64,000 nt of DNA from a bacterium (GCA_024711295.1 JANJTB010000002.1:145804-209803), one strand, 5' to 3'; shown: positions 8,599-63,130, numbered from the stretch's first letter. Made by a program: numbers and translations. The notes: generated from the sequence alone by a model not told the origin.

Positions 8599-9432
8599 AT
8601 GAAAAAACTTACAATATTAACATTGCTGATAATAATGCTTACCCAGTTTGATTTGCTTTCGCAGGTAGGGATTTATCCACAGGCAGTTTTCTTGAATCAG
8701 AAAAATAGGGCAAGTAATCTTAAAGTACTAAATATGACTAATGAAACAAAAGAAATAATTCTTGACCTAAAGTTTGGATATCCTGATTATGACTCTCTGG
8801 GCAACTATTCTCTGGTTTACGGCGACACATTGCCCGGCGCTAAGTGGTCGGCTGTACCCTTTGTCAGAATGTTTCCCAAAAGATTACTTCTCAAGGCAAA
8901 TGAGGAACAAGTTGTTAAGTTCATGTTAGGCAATATGGGGAATGTACCTGATGGTACTTATTTTGGAAGAATCCATGTTCTTTCAAAAAATCCACCTGAA
9001 GAAATTGATACAACCTATACAGAATCAATTACAGCAAAAATTGACATACATTTTACACTTATTTCTGCATTGATTGTTGACAAAGGCAAAACTTACTGTG
9101 ATATAAGTGTTAAGCCGATGGGAACATTCTCAGATTCAAACATGGTCAATTTCTTAGTGAATGTAAATAAAGATGGTAATGCTCCATTTTTGGGTACAAC
9201 TGAAATGAAAGTATATGATTCTATGGGTAAACTTGTGGCACAAAGCAAGGACTTAACACCGTTCTATTTTAGTGGTACAAGATCTTTCAGATTCGATAAG
9301 AAATTATTTTCGAATGGTCGTTACAACGTCGAGCTTACAATGTCAAACGAGCACAAGGACGTTCCTGACGATTTCAAAGTAGCAATTAAGCCTGTAAAAG
9401 AAACATTCTCTGTTGATTTAGATGGTATATGA
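8599..9432 (+). CDS. Periplasmic PapD-like fimbrial chaperone candidate
   Basis: Signal peptide present. The mature N-terminus 'GIYPQAVFLNQKNRASNLKVLNMTNETKEIILDL' follows the 'I.P.r.if.......sl.v.N' pattern of pilus chaperones. At 277 aa the size is typical. The assignment rests on motif memory only. Confidence 0.4.
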   Translation: MKKLTILTLLIIMLTQFDLLSQVGIYPQAVFLNQKNRASNLKVLNMTNETKEIILDLKFGYPDYDSLGNYSLVYGDTLPGAKWSAVPFVRMFPKRLLLKANEEQVVKFMLGNMGNVPDGTYFGRIHVLSKNPPEEIDTTYTESITAKIDIHFTLISALIVDKGKTYCDISVKPMGTFSDSNMVNFLVNVNKDGNAPFLGTTEMKVYDSMGKLVAQSKDLTPFYFSGTRSFRFDKKLFSNGRYNVELTMSNEHKDVPDDFKVAIKPVKETFSVDLDGI

Positions 9433-25461: not shown

Positions 25462-27504
25462 TTATTTAATTACATTCAAAGGCTTTGTAATAACACCGCT
25501 AATTGTTCTTATCTGAACAAAATATATGCCGTTAGCCAAATTATTAACATCAACAGTAAACTCATAGAATCCCTGATTTTGAGTTAAACCTTCAGCGATA
25601 GTATTAATCAGTGAGCCGGTTGCATCATATACCTGAATGGTAACAATTTCATCAGAAGGTAACTGATATATTACCGATGACACATTGCTTGCCGGATTAG
25701 GGAACACATTTACATCAAGAATCCAATTGTGTGAATCTTCAACTGATGCTAATGTTTTAGCTTCATATAGCTTGTTAATTGGGTCATATTCAGCCCATGG
25801 CAAATCCCATCTCAGAGCAATAACAGAGCTGAATGCACCCCTGTAGCTAACTTTATCAAAGAACTCATCATCAATCCTTACTATATTATTTCCATTGCTG
25901 AATGAGGCATTAGTAAGGTAGTTTGCATTATTCTGAGGTACTGCGTTAAATGATGTGCCGATAACAAACGGGTTAGTCAGCGCAGCATTCACAGGTGAAG
26001 ATACATCAAAGAAGTTATTGAAACCGGAAGTTTCGTTCCAGTTAGCTGCTACACCCGGGTTTGTACCATCAAGAGTCAAAGTTCTTCCTTTGATACCGAA
26101 TAAGCTATTATTTTTGTACATTACCGAATCTTTTGAAGCAGCTGTCTGACCGGGCAGACTTAACAATTCAAGACCACGAGGCCATCCCAAAATAACTGAG
26201 TTAAATATGGAAGCTCTGGCATTTCTGCGGATTTGCGCAGCAGCACCAAAACGTGTGTGATAAGTTCTGTCAGCAGCACCTGTAGATGATGGTGTCCAAC
26301 TGGTATCCTGTAAAGGTCCTATAGCTGTTACATTCGAGAATATTGGCTTCGTGAGAGGTTCGTTATAGTTGCCTGTCGAATTATTATCTATTTCCCATGC
26401 TTGTGAAGTCGAAACGTCGGCTCTGTCTTTGAATCTCTGTACCAAGACGTGCTGCACTCTGCCGCTAAAACCATTATCACAATCCAGGTCATCATCGAGT
26501 GTACCGTTAGATATAAGGTATTTAGCATCAACAGTTCCACCAAACCATTCATAAGCATCATCATTGGCATAGCTCACCTGAATGTTACGAATTACAGTTC
26601 CACGTCCGACACCACCCAAAGTTAAAGAGTTTAATTCTTGGTTAGGAGCTGCAGCAATACCTGCAAATTCAATTCTTAAATATTCCAGATGTCCACTATT
26701 ATCATTATCATCGGGGCTGTTTCCGCCTCCAAACCATCCGCGAACTTTATTGGCATCAGCGATACCACCTTCTAATTGTGCCTCGCCGCCTGCATGGTTA
26801 GTAGCTGCTTTTCCGCAGATCAACACACCACCCCAATCACCACCACGGCGCTGTCCCGGTGCTGCTGAGCTTGTCATCACAATAGGGTCTTCCTTTGTGC
26901 CCATAGCGAATATTTTTCCACCTCTGTTAACACAAATTGCAGAGTTTTGGCCAACAGTATCACCAATTATTATCGTTCCTCTTTGTATATGTAATTCTCC
27001 ACCATTGTCAACGTAAACATATCCGTCCAAGCCATAAATCTTGGTTCTGGAAAGGAATACTTTGCCAGCTATCGGATCTTTAAGGATCGAGTCAGGTCTG
27101 GTCACTGCCGGTTGTTCAATTGTAAATGGGTTGTCGTTTCTATCCTGTACGGCTTCGTTCAGTGTTCCATCTTCGTTTACGAGTATCATTCTTACATAAC
27201 CGCTTGTAGTACCGACTGCAGGAGTACGGAAACCACCGGCATATACACCGCGGCGTGCTGCACTATCCAGAATGTTGGATGCCGATGGTAGATTTTGCCA
27301 TGGACCATCAGTTGATGTTGCAAACTGGAATGTCCATTTTGCACGGTATGTACCTGTTGTATCCCATCTCAAGTCTATCGAAGCACCCGGGCGAAATACC
27401 TCGCCACCAGCAGGATTAATGAGCTTACACGAGCTCGGTTGTTGAGAATATGCTGCAACACCGATACTCATTATCGCAAAGAAAATTAGAAGATTACGTA
27501 ACAT
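25462..27504 (-). CDS. Secreted surface protein with a T9SS C-terminal sorting domain
   Basis: Signal peptide. The C-terminus 'VFPNPASNVSSVIYQLPSDEIVTIQVYDATGSLI...GIYFVQIRT' is a T9SS CTD. The Gly/Asn-rich middle is possibly a beta-helix. Confidence 0.55.
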   Translation of the reverse strand: MLRNLLIFFAIMSIGVAAYSQQPSSCKLINPAGGEVFRPGASIDLRWDTTGTYRAKWTFQFATSTDGPWQNLPSASNILDSAARRGVYAGGFRTPAVGTTSGYVRMILVNEDGTLNEAVQDRNDNPFTIEQPAVTRPDSILKDPIAGKVFLSRTKIYGLDGYVYVDNGGELHIQRGTIIIGDTVGQNSAICVNRGGKIFAMGTKEDPIVMTSSAAPGQRRGGDWGGVLICGKAATNHAGGEAQLEGGIADANKVRGWFGGGNSPDDNDNSGHLEYLRIEFAGIAAAPNQELNSLTLGGVGRGTVIRNIQVSYANDDAYEWFGGTVDAKYLISNGTLDDDLDCDNGFSGRVQHVLVQRFKDRADVSTSQAWEIDNNSTGNYNEPLTKPIFSNVTAIGPLQDTSWTPSSTGAADRTYHTRFGAAAQIRRNARASIFNSVILGWPRGLELLSLPGQTAASKDSVMYKNNSLFGIKGRTLTLDGTNPGVAANWNETSGFNNFFDVSSPVNAALTNPFVIGTSFNAVPQNNANYLTNASFSNGNNIVRIDDEFFDKVSYRGAFSSVIALRWDLPWAEYDPINKLYEAKTLASVEDSHNWILDVNVFPNPASNVSSVIYQLPSDEIVTIQVYDATGSLINTIAEGLTQNQGFYEFTVDVNNLANGIYFVQIRTISGVITKPLNVIK

Positions 27505-51071: not shown

Positions 51072-51965
51072 ATGAACACAATTGATATTAATGGAAATTT
51101 CCTGGCAATTGAGGAAGAATTTTCGAACCTTGAGAATTCTCTTATTGTAATATTATCTGCTCCATACGAGCATACAGTAAGCTATGGCAATGGTGCCGGT
51201 GGAGGTCCTGCAGGAATTCTCGAAGCATCTGCCTATGTTGAATTCTATGATGATGAGACTGATAGAGAATTATGTTTTGAAAAAGGCATTGCAACAATCG
51301 AACCAATTGACTTTGGTGAAAAGGTTGACAAGGATGCTCTTGAAATTATACAGCAAAGGGTTGCAAAATTACTCGATAAGGATAAATTTGTAGTTACACT
51401 CGGTGGTGAACATACTATCTCAACAGCACCCATAGCTGCCCATTACAATAAATATCCTGAGATGTGTATTTTGCATTTTGATGCACATTCTGATTTGAGG
51501 GACTCTTATCTTGATAACAAATATTCTCATGCATCTTTTATGGCTAGGGTAGCTGAGTTTTTTCCTACAGATAAAATTGTTCAGGTCGGAATCAGGGCTC
51601 AGTGCAAGGAAGAATCAATTTTCATAAAAGAGAATAACGTAAAAACATTCTATGCATCAGCAATACGAAGAGGAATTTATGGCAATGATTGGCAACAAAA
51701 GGTTGTTGACTCTTTGGGTGATATTATTTACTGTACATTCGATGTAGATTATTTTGATCCTTCGATTATGGCAGCTACAGGTACTCCCGAGCCGGAAGGT
51801 TTCCTCTATAGTGAAACAATTGACATATTCAGAAAAATTAAAAAGGCTGGCAAGAAAATTATCGGGTTAGATGTTGTAGAACTTGCTCCAAGCGAATATC
51901 ACAAACATTGTGACCTAACTACAGCCAGATTGATTTACAAAATTTTAAATCTTTCTATTGATTAA
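51072..51965 (+). CDS. speB: Agmatinase/arginase-family ureohydrolase
   Basis: 'GGEHTIS', 'DAHSDL' and 'DVDYFDPS' are the Mn-binding motifs. Confidence 0.7.
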   Translation: MNTIDINGNFLAIEEEFSNLENSLIVILSAPYEHTVSYGNGAGGGPAGILEASAYVEFYDDETDRELCFEKGIATIEPIDFGEKVDKDALEIIQQRVAKLLDKDKFVVTLGGEHTISTAPIAAHYNKYPEMCILHFDAHSDLRDSYLDNKYSHASFMARVAEFFPTDKIVQVGIRAQCKEESIFIKENNVKTFYASAIRRGIYGNDWQQKVVDSLGDIIYCTFDVDYFDPSIMAATGTPEPEGFLYSETIDIFRKIKKAGKKIIGLDVVELAPSEYHKHCDLTTARLIYKILNLSID

Positions 51966-51994: not shown

Positions 51995-54900
51995 ATGAAT
52001 AGATTTGTTTACGGAGTTTTATCAATACTTTTATTTGCAGTAACTTCGGTTATTTACTCCCAACCTCAAGCTGCATATATTATTCCTGACATTGGTGCAC
52101 CGGGCATGAATGTATATGTTGAGTTTGTAGCTCCGCATAATTTAAGTGGTACATTCGGTCCTGACGGGGTTTATCTGAATAATTCCAATGATCGTGTTCG
52201 AGTTGAGCCAAAAAATGCGTCAGACAGAGCTAAGGTGAAAATTGGGCCCGTTATTGTAAGCTGGGATGGAAGATTAATTTCAACGCATGTATTCATAAAT
52301 CCGGAATTAAAACCAAATTCACCCGATGCACTATTAGTACGTCCTGAGTTTAGAATTCCGCTAGTAGTAATAGTAAATGGTACAACAGGAAATGAGCAAA
52401 CTTTTTATATTGTTCAATCCAGGCCTTTTTTTGATGGCACAAAAAATCCTTCTGAGCTTACTTTTGGTTCAGGAATGCTCGGAAACCGTTCACCAAGAGG
52501 AGCATTAATATTTGACTCACTTAAGCTTGCCAGTGACAAATACACTGTATCTACCTCAGATTGCGACCCTAACACTTCAGGGAATCAGGGATATTTACCC
52601 TTTACACTATTGGTGAGAGGAAATGTTGAGGGAACAGGCAACACAGTAATATCCGTTGATGCTGTAGGAATTAATGGCGGACCCGGCGGTGGCGGTGGCG
52701 GTGGGAGATTTTATGATGGACCTAATAGCAGTAATGGAGATAACGGTGGTGATGGTTATGTCGGTGGTGGTGCCGGTGGAAGAAACAACGCCGGTTTACC
52801 TTTTATGACAAATGTATTTAGAAATCAGGGACAGGGAAGCGGAACAAACGGGAACTCTTTAAGTGGAGTATTATTCCCTAAAAATGAAGCATATGAATCA
52901 TCAGGTGGAGGCACAGGCCATCCTTTTGGTTCATCGGGAATTTCATGTAATAATGCCAACAACTGTAATCCACCGGGAGAATTTGGAGGTGGAAGTGGTA
53001 TAAATCAGGTTCGTCAGGGAGGTGCGGGAGGATATGCAACTGAAGGTGATGGTTTTAGTGGTGGTGGTAAGATTCACGGCAACATCATGAATGTTCCTTT
53101 TGCAGGTGGCTCCGGGGGTGCGAGTGGTAACCCTCAAGGTCTTGACTGCTATGCTGGAAATGGAGGTGGTGGTGGCGGAGCGATTAACCTCTTTGCCTAT
53201 AATATATCTAATTTATCTGTGAGTGCAAAAGGTGCAAATGGTGGAAATTTCTCAGGGACTCATATCAACCTTGACAGAACTCCTGAACCTTTTGGTGGAA
53301 GTGGTTCAGGTGGTATGGTGAACCTATTGTCAAAAGAAGCAATACAAGGAGTTAGTGTTGATGTTGCAGGAGGTAAAGTTAATAACCGCTCAGGCGGCAC
53401 CGGCAGGGTAAGAGTAGATTATAACTGGACTATGAACGACGTCAACATTCTTAATAGTAATGCTTCTCAGTATTATGGACTAAGAACAGATACAACGCAA
53501 TACGTGGGTAATGGTAAAAATTACAAAGTCAGGTTTAACCAGCATAAGCCAGGAAAAAATATCACATCTCACATAATTTATGCTCCTTATGGCAAAGACT
53601 GGAAAGATCTTCAATTAACACTTACTGATCCCCAAGGTTCTGATTTCTTTTGGGCTTTACTTGATCAAACAGAAAAATATCATTGCTTTGTTTTAATGCA
53701 GGAAGTTCCTAATCCAAATGATGGAGATTATGTAAGAGAACCTTTTATGGTAATGTCGCAGGCAGCGGCTAATTTACTTATTTTAGAATTAAACCCCATT
53801 CTTGTAGCAGATTCAGTTGCATCAAATCCTGCAATTACATGTATAGGTTTCGAAAGATTTATCGAAACAACAATAAAGAACGACGAAAATGCAGCCTCTG
53901 ATTTAGAAATAACTCTAAGCAATAATAACTGGATTTTTGGGAATAATGGATTTGAAATTGTAGAGCCGTTAGGCAATGTAAAGATCAAGCCGGGTGACTC
54001 AATAGTTTTGAAAGTAAAATTTGCATGGATTGATGGCGATAAAAAGAACTTATCAAACAAATTATATTTTAATCATAACGACCCTACGAAGAAGGATCCA
54101 TGGATTATTACATATACTGTAGGTGATGCTTACCTTCCTGGTATGCGACTCGAAGGAAATTTTGACTTTGGTGATGTTAGAGTTAATGGCAAATCTCAAA
54201 GAACTTTTGATTTAGTCAACTTAGGAGAAGCTCCACTTTTGATCGAGAATATAAATAATATCAATCCGCCATTTTTTGTTATTTCTACTACACCTGCTCT
54301 TCCCTATGTCCTTAATCCTGGACAATCACTAAAAATATTAGTAGAATTCAGACCAACTCAGGAAATTGAGTACAACGCAGCACTTAGCGTAATAAGTATT
54401 GTTACAGATACTACATGTTCTGCATTTTCTTTTGAACCCGTCAAAGGCAAAGGTGTTACTTCATCAATAGATGTTAATACAACCGAAATTGATTTTGGTA
54501 TTATACCCTGGTGTGACGAAAAACAAGAAGTAATTTCAATAAAGAATCCTGCTTCTGCATCAACATCTTTCACACTAACAACTTTGGCTGAAATAGTAGG
54601 AGAAAACCCCGAGGCATTTGTGATTACAAATCCTAAAAATCCTCCTATTACTATTACTCCAGGAGATGGAACCCAGTTTAACATAAAAATAAATGGAAAA
54701 ACAGCAGGTACCGGTGTAAAAAGAGCTATTTTCAGAATAGAAACAGATGTTCCGGAAATACCGATAATCGAAGTAGTTTTAAAAGCAGAGATAATTGGAT
54801 TTGATGTTGTTGCCACTCCAAACCCCATAAATTTGGGTAATGTTGATGCAGGATATGATTATATATTGCCAATTAATTTACGAAACAACGGCAAGGCATT

Positions 54901-56500
54901 GCAAGTAATAAAAGAAGCAGTTTCTAGTTCCCCTACTCAGCTAATAATACCAGATGTCAGTGGAACAAGTATCATCCCAGGAGGAGTGTTCTTATTTAAT
55001 GCGACACTTAAAACAAACCAAAAGCCGGCTAATAATTCAATAACAGTAGTTTTCCATTCACCGTGCCCGGATACAATAGCTATACCCGTAATACTGAACT
55101 ATGTAAATGCCCAAATTACTGCAAATGCCGGAACGCAACAATTATTAGAGAATCAGGTCAAGATTGATACACTGGATTTTGGAAAATTCTCTCCATGCGA
55201 AATAGGCAGTATAAAACAGATTGAGATTATCAATAATTCGGCCGGTAGATTCACTATTTTGGATGAAGAAATTATCAATAGTTCTGTAACTTGTTTCAGT
55301 TTTAATGGCACAGGACTTGATTATCCGGATACTCTGCTTACTAATACCACAAAAAATGGATTTCAGATTTATTTCGACCCTACAGGGCTAAGTGATGGAA
55401 TTTACTTTGCAGATTATCTAATCACAGTTTATATAAATGGTCAAACAGAAATCAGAAAAGTTGTCCTCAGAGCTGAAATAATCGAGGGCAAATTCAGTGC
55501 AAATCCTACAAACATTGACATTAATGAAATAGTCGGACTTACTAAAGATGGGTCTTTTGAAATCAAAAATGATGGACCTTACGAGCTTGAAATAATTTCT
55601 GTATCCGGCTTTAACCATACAGCATTCAAGCTTAATTCTAACATAAATGGTATCATAATAAATCCAAATGGTACTCTTACTGTAGATATTAGCTTTTCTC
55701 CTGATGCTGTAATTACAATAAATGATTCACTTATAATCAGAGTCAAGTCCGGTAATTGTGAAAATGATTTGGTGATTTATCTTAACGGTACAGGTACACC
55801 ATCCAAGAAATTACACATTTATATTCCAGATTTAGTTGTTGAGCCGACCTTAAATAATTTCAGAATTCCGATTTATGGTAAGCTAGAAAAAATTGGAGAC
55901 GATTTGGAAGGATTCGAGATTGAATCGCTCAAAATTACTATGTTAAGAACTGTATTTTATCCAGAAGCCATTATTGGTGGTTCTCTGTTAAGCTCAAATC
56001 TTATCGGAGATAATAGAGAGATAACAATAAATATAAATGATATATCTATTAATCAGAATGATAGCTTAATTGCTGAAATAGAAGGAGCTACATTACTTGG
56101 GGAGACAGATTTTTCAGAGATTAAAATTTCTGATGTCACATACTCAATGAAAACTCTTGTGGGTGAATTAACAACACAAAACGGATCACTCAAGACCGAA
56201 ATTTGCGAAGAAGGTGGTCAAAGGTTATTAACTGTACAAGGAAGCGGTAATACTATCAGAGTTAATCCAAATCCTTCGAATGAGCTGTCGAATATCATTG
56301 TAACACCTATCGAAAAGGGTAATTACCAACTTCAGCTTGTGGACTTATTGGGAAATATCCTGGCTGAAAAAGCATGGAGGAACGAGGATAACAAAGAATT
56401 ATCCCTAAATTTTGAAGAAAATTTAGCGCCGGGAATTTACACTTTGATACTTAATTCACCGACAGAAGTTGTTTATCAACAAATCATTATTGTAAAATAG
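51995..56500 (+). CDS. Giant (1501 aa) Gly-rich secreted surface protein with a T9SS C-terminal sorting domain
   Basis: Signal peptide. The Gly-rich segment contains 'GGPGGGGGGGRFYDG...'. Beta-sandwich-like repeats follow. The C-terminal 'VNPNPSNELSNIIVT...GIYTLILNS' is a T9SS CTD. Confidence 0.6.
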   Translation: MNRFVYGVLSILLFAVTSVIYSQPQAAYIIPDIGAPGMNVYVEFVAPHNLSGTFGPDGVYLNNSNDRVRVEPKNASDRAKVKIGPVIVSWDGRLISTHVFINPELKPNSPDALLVRPEFRIPLVVIVNGTTGNEQTFYIVQSRPFFDGTKNPSELTFGSGMLGNRSPRGALIFDSLKLASDKYTVSTSDCDPNTSGNQGYLPFTLLVRGNVEGTGNTVISVDAVGINGGPGGGGGGGRFYDGPNSSNGDNGGDGYVGGGAGGRNNAGLPFMTNVFRNQGQGSGTNGNSLSGVLFPKNEAYESSGGGTGHPFGSSGISCNNANNCNPPGEFGGGSGINQVRQGGAGGYATEGDGFSGGGKIHGNIMNVPFAGGSGGASGNPQGLDCYAGNGGGGGGAINLFAYNISNLSVSAKGANGGNFSGTHINLDRTPEPFGGSGSGGMVNLLSKEAIQGVSVDVAGGKVNNRSGGTGRVRVDYNWTMNDVNILNSNASQYYGLRTDTTQYVGNGKNYKVRFNQHKPGKNITSHIIYAPYGKDWKDLQLTLTDPQGSDFFWALLDQTEKYHCFVLMQEVPNPNDGDYVREPFMVMSQAAANLLILELNPILVADSVASNPAITCIGFERFIETTIKNDENAASDLEITLSNNNWIFGNNGFEIVEPLGNVKIKPGDSIVLKVKFAWIDGDKKNLSNKLYFNHNDPTKKDPWIITYTVGDAYLPGMRLEGNFDFGDVRVNGKSQRTFDLVNLGEAPLLIENINNINPPFFVISTTPALPYVLNPGQSLKILVEFRPTQEIEYNAALSVISIVTDTTCSAFSFEPVKGKGVTSSIDVNTTEIDFGIIPWCDEKQEVISIKNPASASTSFTLTTLAEIVGENPEAFVITNPKNPPITITPGDGTQFNIKINGKTAGTGVKRAIFRIETDVPEIPIIEVVLKAEIIGFDVVATPNPINLGNVDAGYDYILPINLRNNGKALQVIKEAVSSSPTQLIIPDVSGTSIIPGGVFLFNATLKTNQKPANNSITVVFHSPCPDTIAIPVILNYVNAQITANAGTQQLLENQVKIDTLDFGKFSPCEIGSIKQIEIINNSAGRFTILDEEIINSSVTCFSFNGTGLDYPDTLLTNTTKNGFQIYFDPTGLSDGIYFADYLITVYINGQTEIRKVVLRAEIIEGKFSANPTNIDINEIVGLTKDGSFEIKNDGPYELEIISVSGFNHTAFKLNSNINGIIINPNGTLTVDISFSPDAVITINDSLIIRVKSGNCENDLVIYLNGTGTPSKKLHIYIPDLVVEPTLNNFRIPIYGKLEKIGDDLEGFEIESLKITMLRTVFYPEAIIGGSLLSSNLIGDNREITININDISINQNDSLIAEIEGATLLGETDFSEIKISDVTYSMKTLVGELTTQNGSLKTEICEEGGQRLLTVQGSGNTIRVNPNPSNELSNIIVTPIEKGNYQLQLVDLLGNILAEKAWRNEDNKELSLNFEENLAPGIYTLILNSPTEVVYQQIIIVK

Positions 56501-56517
56501 GAAAAACGGATATACAA

Positions 56518-58656
56518 ATGAAGAAAATATTATTATTACTTACATTCATAATTTTTACCGGTCAGACATTTTCTCAGAATATTGAAGATAAACCTATTAT
56601 TTATGTTGGCGGATATGTCGGTTATCTGCTAAATTTTCACAATGCTGACTTTAACAGGTTAAGGGGTTATCCAAATTGCTGTCCCCAATTCACAGATGGC
56701 AGCGGTTCGAGCCCTGCAGTTGGCATATTGCTGGAGTATCCTCTTAATCCTCAATGGAGAGCAGGCCTTAGATTTGGAATCGCAGGGCTGAGCGGTGATT
56801 TGCAAAGAGAGCAGAAAATCGGTAATACCGAAATTGTAAGAGCTGATGGTTTCGACAATAATGAAATTGCTGATGCGCTATCAAACTACGAAATTAACTC
56901 CAATATTCAAATTATTGGTATAGAACCTTTCGTAAATTATTATCCAATTGATAATTTAAATGTAAATGCAGGTTTCAGAATCGGTATTATGAATAACTCT
57001 ACTTTCGATCAATCCGAAAGACTAATTACACCGACAAATGTTGTTTTTACAGAAACAGGTACCAGAGCTCGAAACGAAGCCAGAAATCAGGAAATTCCTG
57101 AGACGAACACACTTCAATTTCACCCTTTTATAGGCATTGGATACGACATCAAAATATTTAAAAATGCATCTTTTACTCCTGAAGCAAAATTCTATGTGCC
57201 CCTTAGCAATATTTCTGAGGAGAATTGGAGTGTTAATCAATTATATTTTGGTGCTTCATTAAAATTCCCGATAATGCCTTCTAAAGAAGTCAAAACCATT
57301 AAAAAAATTGAATACCAGAGAGATACTGTTATTAACCAGATTGCAGGTCTTAAAGATAAGGAACTTAAGCTGCTGACGAGTAGAGAAGAATTGAAAAGCA
57401 AACAAGTGGATGATGCAACGATTGTAGAGACGAAAACAATTTTTGAGTCATACCAGCTGAATATTCCACGAGATGCCAAATTCAACGAAAGTTTGGTCAT
57501 TACCGGACTAAACCGTGATGGAACTCGTCAGGCAGATCCTTCAATTATTATTGAAGAAGTCGAAACAGAAGAGAGATTCCCACTTTTACCTTATGTATTT
57601 TTTAGAGAGGGTGATTCTCAGTTAGACAAAACATCTATGAATTTGTTAACTAAATCGAACATTGATAAATTTAATCCTGATAAATTAGATTGGGAAACCC
57701 TTAAAATTTATTCAAATTTATTGAATATTATAGGTCATAGATTATCTAAGTCAAAATCATCAATTACACTAACCGGTACAAACAATAACTTGCCTAAAGA
57801 ACTTGGAGTACCAAACTTATCTAAAAACAGAGCTGAGGCAGTAAAGAATTACCTGGTTGATGTATGGGGGATCGCACCCGGAAGAATCAGCATCCAAAGC
57901 AGAAACTTACCCGCAAAGCCCGCAAATAATGATAGAAGCGACGGTAGAGAAGAGAATCAGAGAGTAGAAATTTCGTCATCAGATATAGCAATTATTGCCC
58001 CTCTTGATATGAAAGATATTGTCAGGACAGCGAATCCTCCAATCATAGAGATTCGTCCGGATTTATGGTCAGAGGTTGGCATTGACAAATGGGAAATTAA
58101 CGTGTCTCAGAAAGGACAGTTACTCCGAAACTATTCAGGTGTTGGCAATGGTAACAACAACAGTTGGGATATAGAGGACGAACCTATTCCTTCACTTGAA
58201 GAACCAATTTTAGTAAAACTCGACTATCAGGATAAATCAGGCAACAAAAGAACTATCGAAAAGAATCTCAAAATCAGCCAGTTGACAATAAAGAAAAAGA
58301 GGTTCGAGCTGAAAGATGACAAGAGAATCGAAAGATTTTCTCTGATATTATTTGATTACGACAAGTCAGAGCTTACCGAGCAGCAAAAGAAGCTGCTTCA
58401 GGATATTAAATCTAAGATACAACCTAATTCTAAAGTTATTATTTCAGGTTTTGCAGATAGGACAGGTGAAGAAGCTTACAATAAGGAACTTTCTGCAAGA
58501 CGTAATGCTGAAGTACAAAAAATTCTTAAAGTATCGGATTCGCAACTTGTAATGCAAAATGTTGGAAGTTCAGAATTGCTTTATGACAACAGCAGCCCTG
58601 AAGGCAGATCTTATTGCAGAACCGTTAAAGTATCTATCGAAACTCCTGTTAAATAA
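56518..58656 (+). CDS. OmpA-family outer-membrane protein (N-terminal beta-barrel plus two OmpA-like C-terminal regions)
   Basis: Signal peptide. The ~240-aa barrel-like N-terminus is followed by 'SKNRAEAVKNYL' and 'GFADRTGEEAYNKELSARRNAEV', both OmpA_C-like. Confidence 0.6.
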   Translation: MKKILLLLTFIIFTGQTFSQNIEDKPIIYVGGYVGYLLNFHNADFNRLRGYPNCCPQFTDGSGSSPAVGILLEYPLNPQWRAGLRFGIAGLSGDLQREQKIGNTEIVRADGFDNNEIADALSNYEINSNIQIIGIEPFVNYYPIDNLNVNAGFRIGIMNNSTFDQSERLITPTNVVFTETGTRARNEARNQEIPETNTLQFHPFIGIGYDIKIFKNASFTPEAKFYVPLSNISEENWSVNQLYFGASLKFPIMPSKEVKTIKKIEYQRDTVINQIAGLKDKELKLLTSREELKSKQVDDATIVETKTIFESYQLNIPRDAKFNESLVITGLNRDGTRQADPSIIIEEVETEERFPLLPYVFFREGDSQLDKTSMNLLTKSNIDKFNPDKLDWETLKIYSNLLNIIGHRLSKSKSSITLTGTNNNLPKELGVPNLSKNRAEAVKNYLVDVWGIAPGRISIQSRNLPAKPANNDRSDGREENQRVEISSSDIAIIAPLDMKDIVRTANPPIIEIRPDLWSEVGIDKWEINVSQKGQLLRNYSGVGNGNNNSWDIEDEPIPSLEEPILVKLDYQDKSGNKRTIEKNLKISQLTIKKKRFELKDDKRIERFSLILFDYDKSELTEQQKKLLQDIKSKIQPNSKVIISGFADRTGEEAYNKELSARRNAEVQKILKVSDSQLVMQNVGSSELLYDNSSPEGRSYCRTVKVSIETPVK

Positions 58657-58931: not shown

Positions 58932-59600
58932 ATGGATGAAGTACCTTTACTATGTTTGGTAATTGAAGACCAGCAGATGGTTGCGAATCTTTTCAAAAAG
59001 TATCTCGACCAGCTAAAAGTATTTAAAAAAGTTGACCTTGCCTATAACAGTGATTCAGCATTAGATTATGTTTTGAATTTTGACTATGAAATAACTTTTA
59101 TAGATATTTTTTTAGCTGACTATAATGGTATAGATTTAGCTAACAAAATTCTCTCTATCAAGCCAAAAAGCAAAATCATATTTTGCTCAGGAATTCAAAG
59201 CAGTAAAATAATCAACGCTTGCCTTAAGATTGGTGCCAGAGGTTATATCAGCAAGGGAGCAGATGTAAGTGAAATACAGGAAGCTGTATTTAAGGTACTG
59301 AGCGGCTCACAGTTCATTTGCCAAAAATCACTTCAAATATTGATTTCAGATAAAGAATCCAATTCACTTGAATACAGACTTTCATCTAATGATGTTAACC
59401 TAACTGAGCGAGAGCAAGAAGTCCTTGATCTGTTGATGAATGAATATTCTGTCCCTGAAATTGCCAACGCACTTTTCATTAGCTCCAGAACCGTTGAAAC
59501 ACATAAAAAACACATTCTTGAAAAGTATGGTGTTAAAACTATGGTTGGGTTGATGAAGAAAATCTCTACGAATAAGAATAAATCCCACATACTGAATTAA
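58932..59600 (+). CDS. LuxR/NarL-family response regulator (REC domain plus HTH), orphan
   Basis: The REC domain has the phospho-acceptor Asp in 'FIDIFLAD' and Lys in 'YISKG'. The C-terminal 'LTEREQEVLDLL...ISSRTVETHKKHILEKYG' is a LuxR helix-turn-helix. Confidence 0.75.
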   Translation: MDEVPLLCLVIEDQQMVANLFKKYLDQLKVFKKVDLAYNSDSALDYVLNFDYEITFIDIFLADYNGIDLANKILSIKPKSKIIFCSGIQSSKIINACLKIGARGYISKGADVSEIQEAVFKVLSGSQFICQKSLQILISDKESNSLEYRLSSNDVNLTEREQEVLDLLMNEYSVPEIANALFISSRTVETHKKHILEKYGVKTMVGLMKKISTNKNKSHILN

Positions 59601-59899: not shown

Positions 59900-60922
59900 A
59901 TGAAGAACATAGTTCAAAAAATCTCAATATTAGCAATTTTTATTGCTATTCTCATCGGCTGTAGTGAAAACAGCAATGTAACTTCACCAAGCAGCAAAGG
60001 TTTATCACAAGAATACGGCAATGATACAAAATATGTAGTATCATTAGTTCAGGACCCATATCAGGATACTGATGGTAACTGGGTTTGGGAATGGCAGGTT
60101 GTAAATACTGCTCCTGGAAATGGACTAAATGGAACACAACAAGCTTTAAGCCACCTTGATTTGATTTTTGGACTCGAAGAATGTGCAGGAAATTGGTCAA
60201 ATGTAGTTTCAGCAGGTGTAAAAAATTATGGAGCAACAGCTTGGACAGATTTTACTCCTACTTATCAGGAAGATATGTCATTGCGTAATAGCGGTGATTG
60301 TTACAGAGACCCTGTTCTTAAATTTTCAGTAACAACCAATGGCTCAAATGCATCATATTTCAGATTAGTTCTTAATGACGAATTTGAAGTAGATGAAACT
60401 TCTGGTGGTTTAATTATGAAATATGCTAACAAATGCTCAATAATATCTTTCCCTGGTATCGGTTGCCCTCCTGAAGATTTTGGTATTGAAGAAATTTGTT
60501 ATTATAATTCTTCTGAGACAGCATGGAGTGCAGGCACAAGATTTAATACTAAGGGAAATTGGGCAACTTATAGCACTTACACAGGTGGAACAAAAACTTA
60601 TGATTTGTATGCGGGACAAAGCATACTTGTAGGTAGTGTAACAGTTGAGCCGGCTATAGGCGGTGTTAATGTAACATACAGTCTAAATGGTACATGGGGA
60701 TTAAGCGAATATCATTTACATTTAGCAACTTCAGTATCTGGAATCCCACAGGCTAATAATAAGAATCCTATACCAGGTCAGTTTAAGTACAAGGGATCAT
60801 ATGAATTAGATCCAGATGACATTGACTCCACTTATCCGAATACAGTTACTGTATTTGTGCCTTGGTCTGGAAGCGCAATTGTTGCTGCCCATGCAGTTGT
60901 ACAAGAAAGAATTTGTGAATAA
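59900..60922 (+). CDS. Hypothetical secreted lipoprotein
   Basis: 'ILIGCSEN' is a lipobox. It is flanked by the two response-regulator genes. Confidence 0.45.
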   Translation: MKNIVQKISILAIFIAILIGCSENSNVTSPSSKGLSQEYGNDTKYVVSLVQDPYQDTDGNWVWEWQVVNTAPGNGLNGTQQALSHLDLIFGLEECAGNWSNVVSAGVKNYGATAWTDFTPTYQEDMSLRNSGDCYRDPVLKFSVTTNGSNASYFRLVLNDEFEVDETSGGLIMKYANKCSIISFPGIGCPPEDFGIEEICYYNSSETAWSAGTRFNTKGNWATYSTYTGGTKTYDLYAGQSILVGSVTVEPAIGGVNVTYSLNGTWGLSEYHLHLATSVSGIPQANNKNPIPGQFKYKGSYELDPDDIDSTYPNTVTVFVPWSGSAIVAAHAVVQERICE

Positions 60923-60953: not shown

Positions 60954-60982
60954 GGCTGCTATTCAATAGCAGCCTTTTTTTT
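60954..60982. terminator. Bidirectional terminator (GGCTGCTATT-c-AATAGCAGCC followed by T8)
   Basis: Read directly. It overlaps the stop codon of the minus-strand response-regulator gene. Confidence 0.65.
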
Positions 60983-61715
60983 AACCTACGTTTTTCATCA
61001 TCAGATCTCTAGCCAGCTTTCGCATCTGAGTTAGGTTTTCGAGACCTAGCTTTGCGTAAATATTCTTACGGTGTGTACTTACAGTAAATATACTTATCTT
61101 CAATTTGTCGGCAATTTCTTTTGTTGAACTATTGTTGGCAATCATCTCCATAATCTCTATCTCCCTGTCTGTAAGGAGCTCTTCAATCTTTGTCAGGTTT
61201 TTGCTACCGATTGAATTTATATCTTGAGAAGTGAAATACGAAAGTTTATTTGCGGAACTACTGCTATCGTCTAATTTTAAAATGGCAAACTCATGCAAAT
61301 CATCATAAAGAACATTAATAACTCTCTGATGGAAATATTTATTTCCTTTGATAACTGTTTTTATTGAGTCAATCAACACATCTTTTGTTACGTCCTTGAA
61401 CTGATAACCATCAGCACCATAAGCAAGTGCTTTATACACGGTTTCCTTATCGTCGCTAATAGATAGGAAAATCAATTTTGTGTTTGGGAAATCATTCTTA
61501 ATTATTCTAAGAGCATCAAATCCGTCTTTCTCTGGCATGACAATATCGCATAATACAATATCAATGTCGTGGTTCTCGAGTACATCAATTGCCTCATCAA
61601 CTGAGAACGCAGTAAAAATCTCACAACCGGGTGAACAATCTGTCAGAATTGCCTTTGTACCCAGTGCCGAAAGTTGAAAATCGTCAATAATTAAAAGTTT
61701 TATATTATCTTTCAT
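60981..61715 (-). CDS. LuxR/NarL-family response regulator, orphan
   Basis: 'LLIIDDFQL...DIVLCDIVMP' is the REC domain. The C-terminal 'LTDREIEIMEMIANNSSTKEIADKLKISIFTVSTHRKNIYAKLG' is a LuxR helix-turn-helix. Confidence 0.8.
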   Translation of the reverse strand: MKDNIKLLIIDDFQLSALGTKAILTDCSPGCEIFTAFSVDEAIDVLENHDIDIVLCDIVMPEKDGFDALRIIKNDFPNTKLIFLSISDDKETVYKALAYGADGYQFKDVTKDVLIDSIKTVIKGNKYFHQRVINVLYDDLHEFAILKLDDSSSSANKLSYFTSQDINSIGSKNLTKIEELLTDREIEIMEMIANNSSTKEIADKLKISIFTVSTHRKNIYAKLGLENLTQMRKLARDLMMKNVG

Positions 61716-61963
61716 TTCTAAATTTCCTATTTACGTATTATTTATTAATTCAAAAATAAGAAATATTTTTCAATTCACTACCTAATATTTATTTAAAAGT
61801 AGCTAATTAAATAAAATAATTACTTTTTTTTAATTTTAATTATTTTTTTCTTGCATATATAAAATTAATTACTTACTTTTGATTTGTGATTAGTTACTTA
61901 ATTATAATTTTTAAGTATTTAATTGGAATTTTTAACTAACTATAAATAGATTTGAGGTATATT

Positions 61964-63130
61964 ATGAAAAATTTGGTAATCATTTTCGCTGCTCTTTTAG
62001 GAGTAGCATTCATATTTACATCTTGCGAGCAATCAATAAATGCTCCTCTAACATCAACAAATGATTTAACAAAATCATATATAGTGTTATACGAAGATTC
62101 AGGTGATAAACTCCAAAGCATCAATTTTGATTCTAAACTTTCAGAAATATTATCAGTTCATAAAATTGACAGAAGCAGTGTAACATATATATACGACCAT
62201 ATTTTTACAGGTTTTGCAGCAAATTTGAGCGAAGCTCAGGTAAGCTCACTAAAATCAGATAAGAGAATTATTGAAATAGAAGAAGACCAAATATTTAACA
62301 TTCAGGATTTAACAAATGAAGATGAAAATAATCCTGATACACAAGCACAATCAACACCATGGGGTATAACTGCAGTTGGTGGCTCAATAGATGCAACAAG
62401 CAGCACAGGTATTGCATGGGTTGTTGATACAGGTATTGACCTGACACACTCTGACCTAAATGTAAATACAACACTTAGCAAAACATTTGTAACTTCAGGT
62501 CAGGACGCTTTATCTGCTAATGATTTGCACAGTCATGGTTCGCATGTAGCCGGTACAATCGCTGCCAAGAACAACACATCAGGTGTTGTAGGTGTATGCG
62601 CAGGCGCTGAATTAGTTGCAATCAAGGTTTTTGACTATACTGGAAAAGGGTCAAGTTCGACAATAATTGCAGGACTTAATTATATTTCAGCTAATCTTGT
62701 TAGCGGTAGAATTAATGTTGTTAACATGAGTTTGGGAGGCTCGGCATCAACGACATTGGATAATGCAGTAAAAGCATTAGCTGCAAAGGGTGTTTATATG
62801 GTGGTTGCAGCAGGCAACTCAGCAAAAAGCGCTACATTGTATTCACCTGCAAGAGTTGAAGCAACAAATGTATTTACAATATCAGCACACGATTCGAAAG
62901 GTGCGTTCGCAACATTTTCTAACTTTAATAATCCACCAGTTGATTTTGCAGCTCCAGGTGTAAGTATATACTCTACTTCAAAATCAGGCGGATATGCAAC
63001 AAAATCAGGAACTTCGATGGCAACTCCACATGTAGCTGGTATTATACTTGCAAATAACGGAACTGTAAACTGGTCAGGTAACGTTACAAAAGATAAAGAT
63101 TCAACACCTGACAAGAAAGCCAGAAGATAA
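61964..63130 (+). CDS. Secreted subtilisin-like serine protease (S8) with an N-terminal I9 inhibitor propeptide
   Basis: Lipobox 'FTSC'. Catalytic triad: 'VVDTGID', 'HGSHVAGTIAA', 'GTSMATPHVAG'. A GAGGT Shine-Dalgarno sequence precedes the ATG at 61964. Confidence 0.8.
   Translation: MKNLVIIFAALLGVAFIFTSCEQSINAPLTSTNDLTKSYIVLYEDSGDKLQSINFDSKLSEILSVHKIDRSSVTYIYDHIFTGFAANLSEAQVSSLKSDKRIIEIEEDQIFNIQDLTNEDENNPDTQAQSTPWGITAVGGSIDATSSTGIAWVVDTGIDLTHSDLNVNTTLSKTFVTSGQDALSANDLHSHGSHVAGTIAAKNNTSGVVGVCAGAELVAIKVFDYTGKGSSSTIIAGLNYISANLVSGRINVVNMSLGGSASTTLDNAVKALAAKGVYMVVAAGNSAKSATLYSPARVEATNVFTISAHDSKGAFATFSNFNNPPVDFAAPGVSIYSTSKSGGYATKSGTSMATPHVAGIILANNGTVNWSGNVTKDKDSTPDKKARR

Follow-up and report, generated by a model that had tools for sequence, protein, structure and literature searches.

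The 64,000-nucleotide stretch of bacterial DNA analyzed here (GCA_024711295.1 JANJTB010000002.1:145804-209803; hereafter the window) contains two adjoining genes on its plus strand between positions 51995 and 58656. The first gene (51995-56500), recognized as an open reading frame (ORF) with hidden Markov model (HMM) matches, encodes a protein of 1501 residues and about 160 kDa, a large type IX secretion system (T9SS) surface protein with a type A sorting signal, which is called the cargo below. The second gene (56518-58656) encodes the partner, a protein of 712 residues in which Pfam and NCBIfam matches and an AlphaFold2 model identify an outer-membrane beta-barrel followed by tandem OmpA-like domains of the peptidoglycan-binding type. 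Source databases name the two only 'choice-of-anchor D domain-containing protein' and 'OmpA family protein', respectively. The cargo stop codon, TAG, occupies 56498-56500, and the partner ATG begins 18 bases past its last base, leaving a spacer of 17 nucleotides (56501-56517, plus strand); in this the preliminary description of the locus was exact. A simple scan of the spacer found no terminator-like site, and the layout suggests that the two genes are probably co-transcribed. The G+C content is about 34% across the window and 41% at 52-54 kb, the location of the glycine codons of the cargo. The evidence supports a dedicated, conserved pairing of the cargo with the barrel/OmpA protein, and both what the parts are and their conserved linkage are established with high confidence.

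The cargo begins with an N-terminal Sec signal peptide (51995-52060, residues 1-22), as a T9SS type A cargo should; it is read from the hydrophobic N-terminus and from a helix that AlphaFold2 predicts at residues 2-21, and cleavage probably takes place before Gln23. It is followed by an IPT/TIG-like immunoglobulin-like (Ig-like) domain (52067-52414, residues 25-140 approximately), a glycine-rich head (52427-53494, residues 145-500 approximately), an Ig-like stalk of the choice-of-anchor D or HYDIN-ASH type (53672-56239, residues 560-1415 approximately) and, last, a C-terminal sorting domain (CTD) of T9SS type A (56264-56491, residues 1424-1499). In the stalk, the NCBIfam model NF012200 (choice-of-anchor D) reaches 89.6 bits over three stretches, the cut-off being 45, and HYDIN_VesB_CFA65-like_Ig, Cep192_D4, ASH and DUF1573 match at residues 719-800, 828-877 and 1182-1267; the remainder of the stalk is presumably of the same kind. 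The C-terminal 76 residues exceed the cut-offs of both type A models, scoring 31.9 bits with PF18962, where the cut-off is 27, and 27.0 bits with TIGR04183, where it is 23, so that the protein is a predicted T9SS cargo, as had been proposed. Pfam and NCBIfam scans of the cargo gave no match to the type B domain, PF13585. The presence of a T9SS in Ignavibacteriae has been suggested earlier from BLAST searches (PMC5837995). Two more proteins with type A tails are encoded in the window, both on the minus strand (528-2645 and 25462-27504; Por_Secre_tail, 34.2 and 43.8 bits), and neither gene is adjoined by a barrel or OmpA gene; the recognizable type A cargos of the window number at least three.

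No Pfam model matches the first 500 residues of the cargo, also when the threshold is relaxed to E<=10. The AlphaFold2 model of residues 1-560, calculated with 38 homologues, has a predicted local distance difference test (pLDDT) score of 89.3 and a predicted template modelling (pTM) score of 0.90. Residues 240-395 or so are modelled with high confidence and are assigned neither to helix nor to strand. The head is predicted to be beta-solenoid-like, and a Foldseek search against the PDB returned nothing at E<=0.001. With an IPT/TIG domain and a glycine-rich, solenoid-like domain as its head, Ig-like domains as its stalk and a type A tail for the T9SS, the cargo has an adhesin-like design.

The label 'Gly-rich' given to the cargo in the preliminary description is appropriate for residues 201-500 or so, to which the enrichment is limited (79 glycine codons; 29-34 glycines per 100 residues at residues 201-400), and not for the protein as a whole, which is 11.2% glycine. 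The segment had further been described as encoded by slippage-prone (GGC/GGT)n simple repeats near 52680-53200, and this idea has to be abandoned. Tandem Repeats Finder and codon inspection revealed a single perfect tandem repeat of 18 nucleotides, (GGCGGT)x3 at 52685-52704, the runner-up being a 9-nucleotide GGT run, and the 79 codons are mixed (GGT 35, GGA 27, GGC 13, GGG 4). The run lengths are constant from species to species: in 35 of 37 orthologues Pro230 is followed by exactly seven glycines (residues 231-237), and in 33 of 35 there are exactly six in the second run (residues 390-395). A metagenome scan for other tract lengths between the exact flanks found no other copy of the locus. 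Across species the runs are fixed motifs of the structure, held by purifying selection.

A profile of the head, searched among 1.84 billion representatives, collected 362 representative clusters when the threshold was E<=1e-30 and 1001 when it was E<=1e-10. The lengths of the proteins cluster around 1500-1800, 1160-1260 and 830-950 residues. Some of the shorter ones, one of them labelled Flavobacteriales by one source, carry type B CTDs (PF13585), and the T9SS tail that accompanies the IPT/TIG domain and the glycine-rich head is of type A or of type B depending on the lineage. This unit is a large, populous family for which Pfam and NCBIfam have no model, and one could be made for it.

The partner begins with a signal peptide (56518-56574, residues 1-19, MKKILLLLTFIIFTGQTFS/QN), a helix at residues 2-17 of the model, which contains no lipobox cysteine; the partner is therefore not a lipoprotein. 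In both proteins of the pair a glutamine stands directly after the likely signal peptidase site, YS/QPQ at 52061 and FS/QNI at 56575 (sites judged by eye), which agrees with the 'Q-rule' described for Bacteroidetes signal peptidase I substrates (PMC5837995). The AlphaFold2 model of the partner, calculated with 77 homologues, has a pLDDT of 89.0. Its first domain is a small outer-membrane beta-barrel (56599-57273, residues 28-252), which has a generic PF13568 match in the Pfam scan of the whole protein; the N-termini of the partner and nine relatives match only the generic barrel models PF13568 and PF13505. By fold comparison, the barrel resembles the 8-stranded barrels of the NspA/OmpA type and not the 14-stranded FadL type. 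The loop between strands 1 and 2 (residues 46-57, NRLRGYPNCCPQ, 56653-56688) has the highest conservation in the barrel (0.61 versus 0.45), and its vicinal cysteines, Cys54 and Cys55, are conserved at about 90% and at least 80%. By the usual topology of OmpA, this loop would face outward.

The barrel is followed by about 460 residues that are predicted to be periplasmic. A linker of beta-strands comes first (57292-57579, residues 259-354; strands at 259-276, 282-298, 301-318, 322-331 and 343-354 in the AlphaFold2 model, with a pLDDT of about 80-89); it is poorly conserved, with a mean column identity of 0.38, and has no Pfam match. Then come a variant OmpA-like domain (57580-57987, residues 355-490), a beta-sandwich domain (58003-58284, residues 496-589) and a canonical OmpA-like domain (58315-58653, residues 600-712, GFADRTGEEAYNKELSARR). 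PF00691 matches the partner over two stretches with 83.7 bits, the cut-off being 27.2. In the OmpA_C motif, G-x-x-D ... R-R/A, the aspartate and the arginine contact the peptide stem of peptidoglycan. Both are found in the second domain only, which reads GFADRTG...LSARR and in which D647 and R662 are invariant across the 77 homologues. The first domain keeps the LSxNRAxxV pattern (LSKNRAEAV) and NQRVEI, with N403, R408, G420 and R438 invariant; it retains the arginine (R438) and has GTNNN in place of the aspartate motif, and its phmmer alignment to 5wtp spans just the second half of the domain. The canonical domain would bind peptidoglycan.

The duplicated OmpA module, regarded as unusual in the preliminary description, turned out to belong to the constant domain plan of a whole family, with at least 572 relatives in species-representative genomes, in which the first copy is divergent; this variant copy also occurs twice in VWA-OmpA proteins. 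The latter (P0101-P0119, outside the window) are 951 residues long and consist of a VWA domain, then a variant OmpA-like domain with its beta-sandwich, present twice (P0101), and lastly a canonical OmpA domain; they have the periplasmic module of the partner in common with it, at 34% identity over 397 residues. The partner family is uniform in length, about 705-730 residues, and a first search gave 166 matches. Nearly all of the relatives come from metagenome-assembled genomes labelled Kapabacteria/Kapaibacterium, Ignavibacteria, Chlorobiota or Bacteroidota.

The conservation of the gene pair was examined with a synteny script at 80 species loci, and the counts cover the 59 loci with at least 3 kb of upstream sequence. 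A homologue of the cargo lies directly upstream of the partner gene, on the same strand, at 45 of the 59, with a median gap of 29 nucleotides and a gap of 100 nucleotides or less in 39 of the 45, which bears out the dedicated cargo-barrel pairing that had been proposed. A different protein of about 960-1010 residues with PKD/SprB repeats takes this place at seven further loci; four of five such proteins scanned match the type A tail (Por_Secre_tail), two of them just under the Pfam cut-off. A large secreted repeat protein is thus encoded directly upstream at 52 of the 59 loci, across 35-68% partner identity. Among annotated relatives, those with 62%, 43% and 37% partner identity have a cargo homologue of 1512-1708 residues directly upstream, with a short-chain dehydrogenase gene inserted between the two genes in the 37% relative. 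At 30% identity the upstream gene encodes a protein with a VWA domain and a beta-propeller, and three T9SS cargos precede it. Since recognizable type A cargos are few, chance cannot explain the 52 of 59.

The reading to which a probability of roughly 0.55 is assigned is that the partner is a co-produced tether between the outer membrane and the peptidoglycan at the site at which the giant protein is exposed on the surface, and that it may also dock the cargo. The main rival, possible but rather doubtful, is that the partner is a housekeeping OmpA, that is, a general tether between outer membrane and peptidoglycan or a major outer-membrane protein, whose gene order is conserved for a reason such as shared strong expression and which has no specific tie to the cargo. 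The wide distribution and uniform size of the partner family would suit such a protein, and several observations weigh against the co-produced tether. Four of the 59 loci have an unrelated gene upstream and three have no same-strand ORF within 500 nucleotides (about 12% together), so that partner genes with no cargo gene in front of them do occur; at one of these three, a cargo gene of the IgGFc_binding/choice-of-anchor-D kind is oriented divergently, and its tail match is weak and below the threshold. The class of the upstream cargo also varies with the sublineage (glycine-rich head, IgGFc_binding head, PKD/SprB repeats, VWA plus beta-propeller), which is equally compatible with a general tether. 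The same glycine-rich head occurs on Flavobacteriales-type contigs, mostly with a type B CTD, with no OmpA or PorP neighbour, and an obligate association of the head with the partner was rejected for this reason. A CTD subtype specific to the partner and common to its cargo classes was likewise rejected: the pairwise CTD scores between glycine-head and PKD-type cargos (40-116) are much like those to unrelated type A CTDs of the same genomes (37-88), and the partner-associated CTDs of different classes are no closer to each other than to these.

Against the housekeeping explanation stands the retention of a large secreted repeat protein upstream at very short gaps over so wide a range of partner identity, when T9SS cargos are a small fraction of the genes. 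Where the glycine-rich cargo is missing, it is usually replaced by another large surface-type protein and not by a random gene. The conservation of the first barrel loop also argues against it, as generic OmpA proteins usually vary in their surface loops.

The pair had been likened to SprB-SprF and to PorP-type arrangements. In SprB-SprF and PG1035-PorP-PorE, a type B cargo is held by a PorP-like barrel and tied to peptidoglycan by PorE (PMC9143113). The locus shares several features with these systems: the gene of a large T9SS cargo adjoins one for a barrel of the outer membrane, the assembly includes a wall-binding module of the OmpA_C type, and the logic leads from a surface protein through a barrel to the peptidoglycan. 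If the kinship were close, a PorP/SprF-like barrel would take the cargo CTD from the T9SS translocon and hold it, and the OmpA domains would fill the role of PorE. The adjacency of the barrel and cargo genes, a mark of PorP/SprF proteins, is indeed present and conserved here (17-nucleotide spacer; 45 of 59 loci), and in F. johnsoniae porP-like genes often lie beside cargo genes and porE-like genes (PMC9143113). The domains, however, speak against the kinship. The PorP/SprF models (TIGR03519 and PF11751) gave no match at E<=0.1 in the whole partner protein, and the N-terminal 360 residues of the partner and nine relatives, searched with NCBIfam and Pfam, gave none even at E<=10; the proposed profile comparison with TIGR03519 therefore came out negative. 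PorP-like proteins are 14-stranded FadL-family barrels that bind cargos with type B CTDs (PMC9143113), whereas the partner barrel is small and of the 8-strand type and its cargo scores above the cut-off for type A, with no match to the type B models (TIGR04131 and PF13585). Membership in the PorP/SprF family is rejected on these grounds. The preliminary description had held that a barrel scoring only as a generic OmpA-type domain, in a pair without synteny in relatives, would speak against its proposal; the barrel is indeed generic, whereas the pair is strongly syntenic.

PorE is a lipoprotein with TPR, propeller, CRD and OmpA_C domains (PMC9143113). The partner has neither a TPR nor a beta-propeller domain, it lacks a lipobox, and the PorE model, NF052230, reaches 29 bits against a cut-off of 600 over the OmpA part only, so that membership in the PorE family is rejected as well; unlike PorP-PorE, the partner combines the barrel and the OmpA modules in one polypeptide. 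Taken with the negative HMM, barrel, CTD and architecture tests, a PorP-type tether is an improbable explanation of the pair.

A further alternative is that the partner acts in cargo biogenesis, perhaps as a small barrel resembling PorT or as a holdase for the very long substrate in the periplasm, and not as a permanent anchor. The short spacer and the gene order would be consistent with stoichiometric co-production, and the barrel of one relative has a very weak PorT/SprT match (E 0.064; 12.6 bits, the cut-off being 125). This match is far under the threshold and absent in the other nine sequences, the presence of two wall-binding modules of the OmpA_C type speaks for a static role in the structure, and the other type A cargos of the window have no such neighbour. 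A helper of secretion is thus very improbable.

Type A cargos are attached to lipopolysaccharide in P. gingivalis (PMC9143113) and in C. hutchinsonii (PMC12860637), and the cargo consequently has no obvious need of a protein anchor. The partner, by contrast, is an integral barrel with a long periplasmic part that ends in a canonical wall-binding domain, and a co-produced tether is favoured for this reason. The pair would then be an envelope module of a Kapabacteria/Ignavibacteria/Chlorobiota-type lineage. By analogy with the characterized type A cargos, the cargo would be attached to lipopolysaccharide, displaying the IPT/TIG domain and the glycine-rich, solenoid-like head on the Ig-like stalk. 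The partner barrel would reside in the outer membrane, and its periplasmic residues would reach and bind the peptidoglycan. The outer membrane would in this way be tied to the wall at the site of the giant protein, and a load-bearing structure would resist extraction. The cargo could possibly be docked through the conserved first loop of the partner. A stronger version, in which the partner is the dedicated anchor or docking platform for type A cargos in Kapabacteria/Ignavibacteria and couples them to peptidoglycan via the Cys-Cys first loop, is considered unlikely.

An arginase/agmatinase-family gene (51072-51965, plus strand) stops 29 nucleotides before the cargo gene on the same strand; this order recurs in the 62%-identity relative, L002, and not in more distant loci. 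Downstream, two genes of LuxR-type response regulators (58932-59600, plus strand, and 60981-61715, minus strand) flank a 340-residue ORF (59900-60922) that has no Pfam match, and an S8 peptidase gene (61952-63130) follows them; this arrangement is not kept in distant relatives. Elsewhere in the window, a second OmpA_C protein of 1059 residues (9429-12608, plus strand) is encoded by a gene whose start overlaps the stop of a 277-residue ORF (8599-9432), and three small ORFs without known function precede the two. The 277-residue and 1059-residue proteins (8599-12608) were considered as a genuine PorP/OmpA positive control and rejected, as they gave no PorP/SprF or PorE assignment.

Two ways of retaining T9SS cargos at the surface are understood, the linkage of type A cargos to lipopolysaccharide and the holding of type B cargos by PorP-like barrels. 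The conserved pairing of a type A cargo with a different barrel, one of the OmpA type equipped with two modules for wall binding, suggests that this lineage, which lies outside the classical Bacteroidota models, has a solution of its own, by which very large surface proteins could be docked or mechanically reinforced. If the partner were a dedicated anchor, it would represent a third mode of T9SS cargo attachment, independent of PorP and not purely based on lipopolysaccharide. A full-text literature search found no paper that ties the T9SS of Ignavibacteria or Kapabacteria to an OmpA partner, and a search on PorP, OmpA and adjacent cargos returned only the known PorP/PorE work. The pair is a testable extension of the current understanding and overturns none of it.

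The pair is built of ordinary domains, and it varies a known kind of arrangement, in which the operon of a surface adhesin also encodes a partner that binds the wall. Compared with classical OmpA, OprF and NspA, the partner is twice the size; a beta linker, a second OmpA-like domain of variant type and a beta-sandwich have been added to it, its first loop is conserved and carries vicinal cysteines, and it has a fixed genomic pairing with a large secreted surface protein, in most cases a confirmed T9SS cargo. In the traAB operon of Myxococcus xanthus, the OmpA-domain protein encoded by the second gene is needed for the function of the surface receptor (PMC3325183). As in the present pair, the first gene encodes a large, repeat-rich surface protein with a C-terminal sorting tag and the product of the second has a C-terminal OmpA-like domain. 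TraA, however, uses MYXO-CTERM and not the T9SS, TraB has one OmpA domain, and TraAB mediate outer-membrane exchange, to which nothing at the present locus points. The TraB model, NF033763, scores 35.6 bits against a cut-off of 700 on the partner, over the OmpA part only, so that the partner is not a TraB protein. The same is true of TpgA (NF047726, 54.2 bits against 350, OmpA part only). In Acinetobacter, the giant adhesin AtaA and TpgA, its peptidoglycan-binding OmpA_C partner, form a stable complex in which the membrane anchor is tied to the wall (PMC12523085). The locus likewise pairs a giant adhesin-like protein, here recognized from sequence, with an OmpA_C partner. AtaA differs in being a trimeric autotransporter with a barrel of its own, and TpgA is periplasmic, with a BamE-like N-terminal domain and no barrel. 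A looser functional analogy to the T9SS systems, leading from a surface protein via a barrel to the wall, is possible; on the best reading of these comparisons, the cargo and its partner would be functionally analogous to TraA/TraB or AtaA/TpgA.

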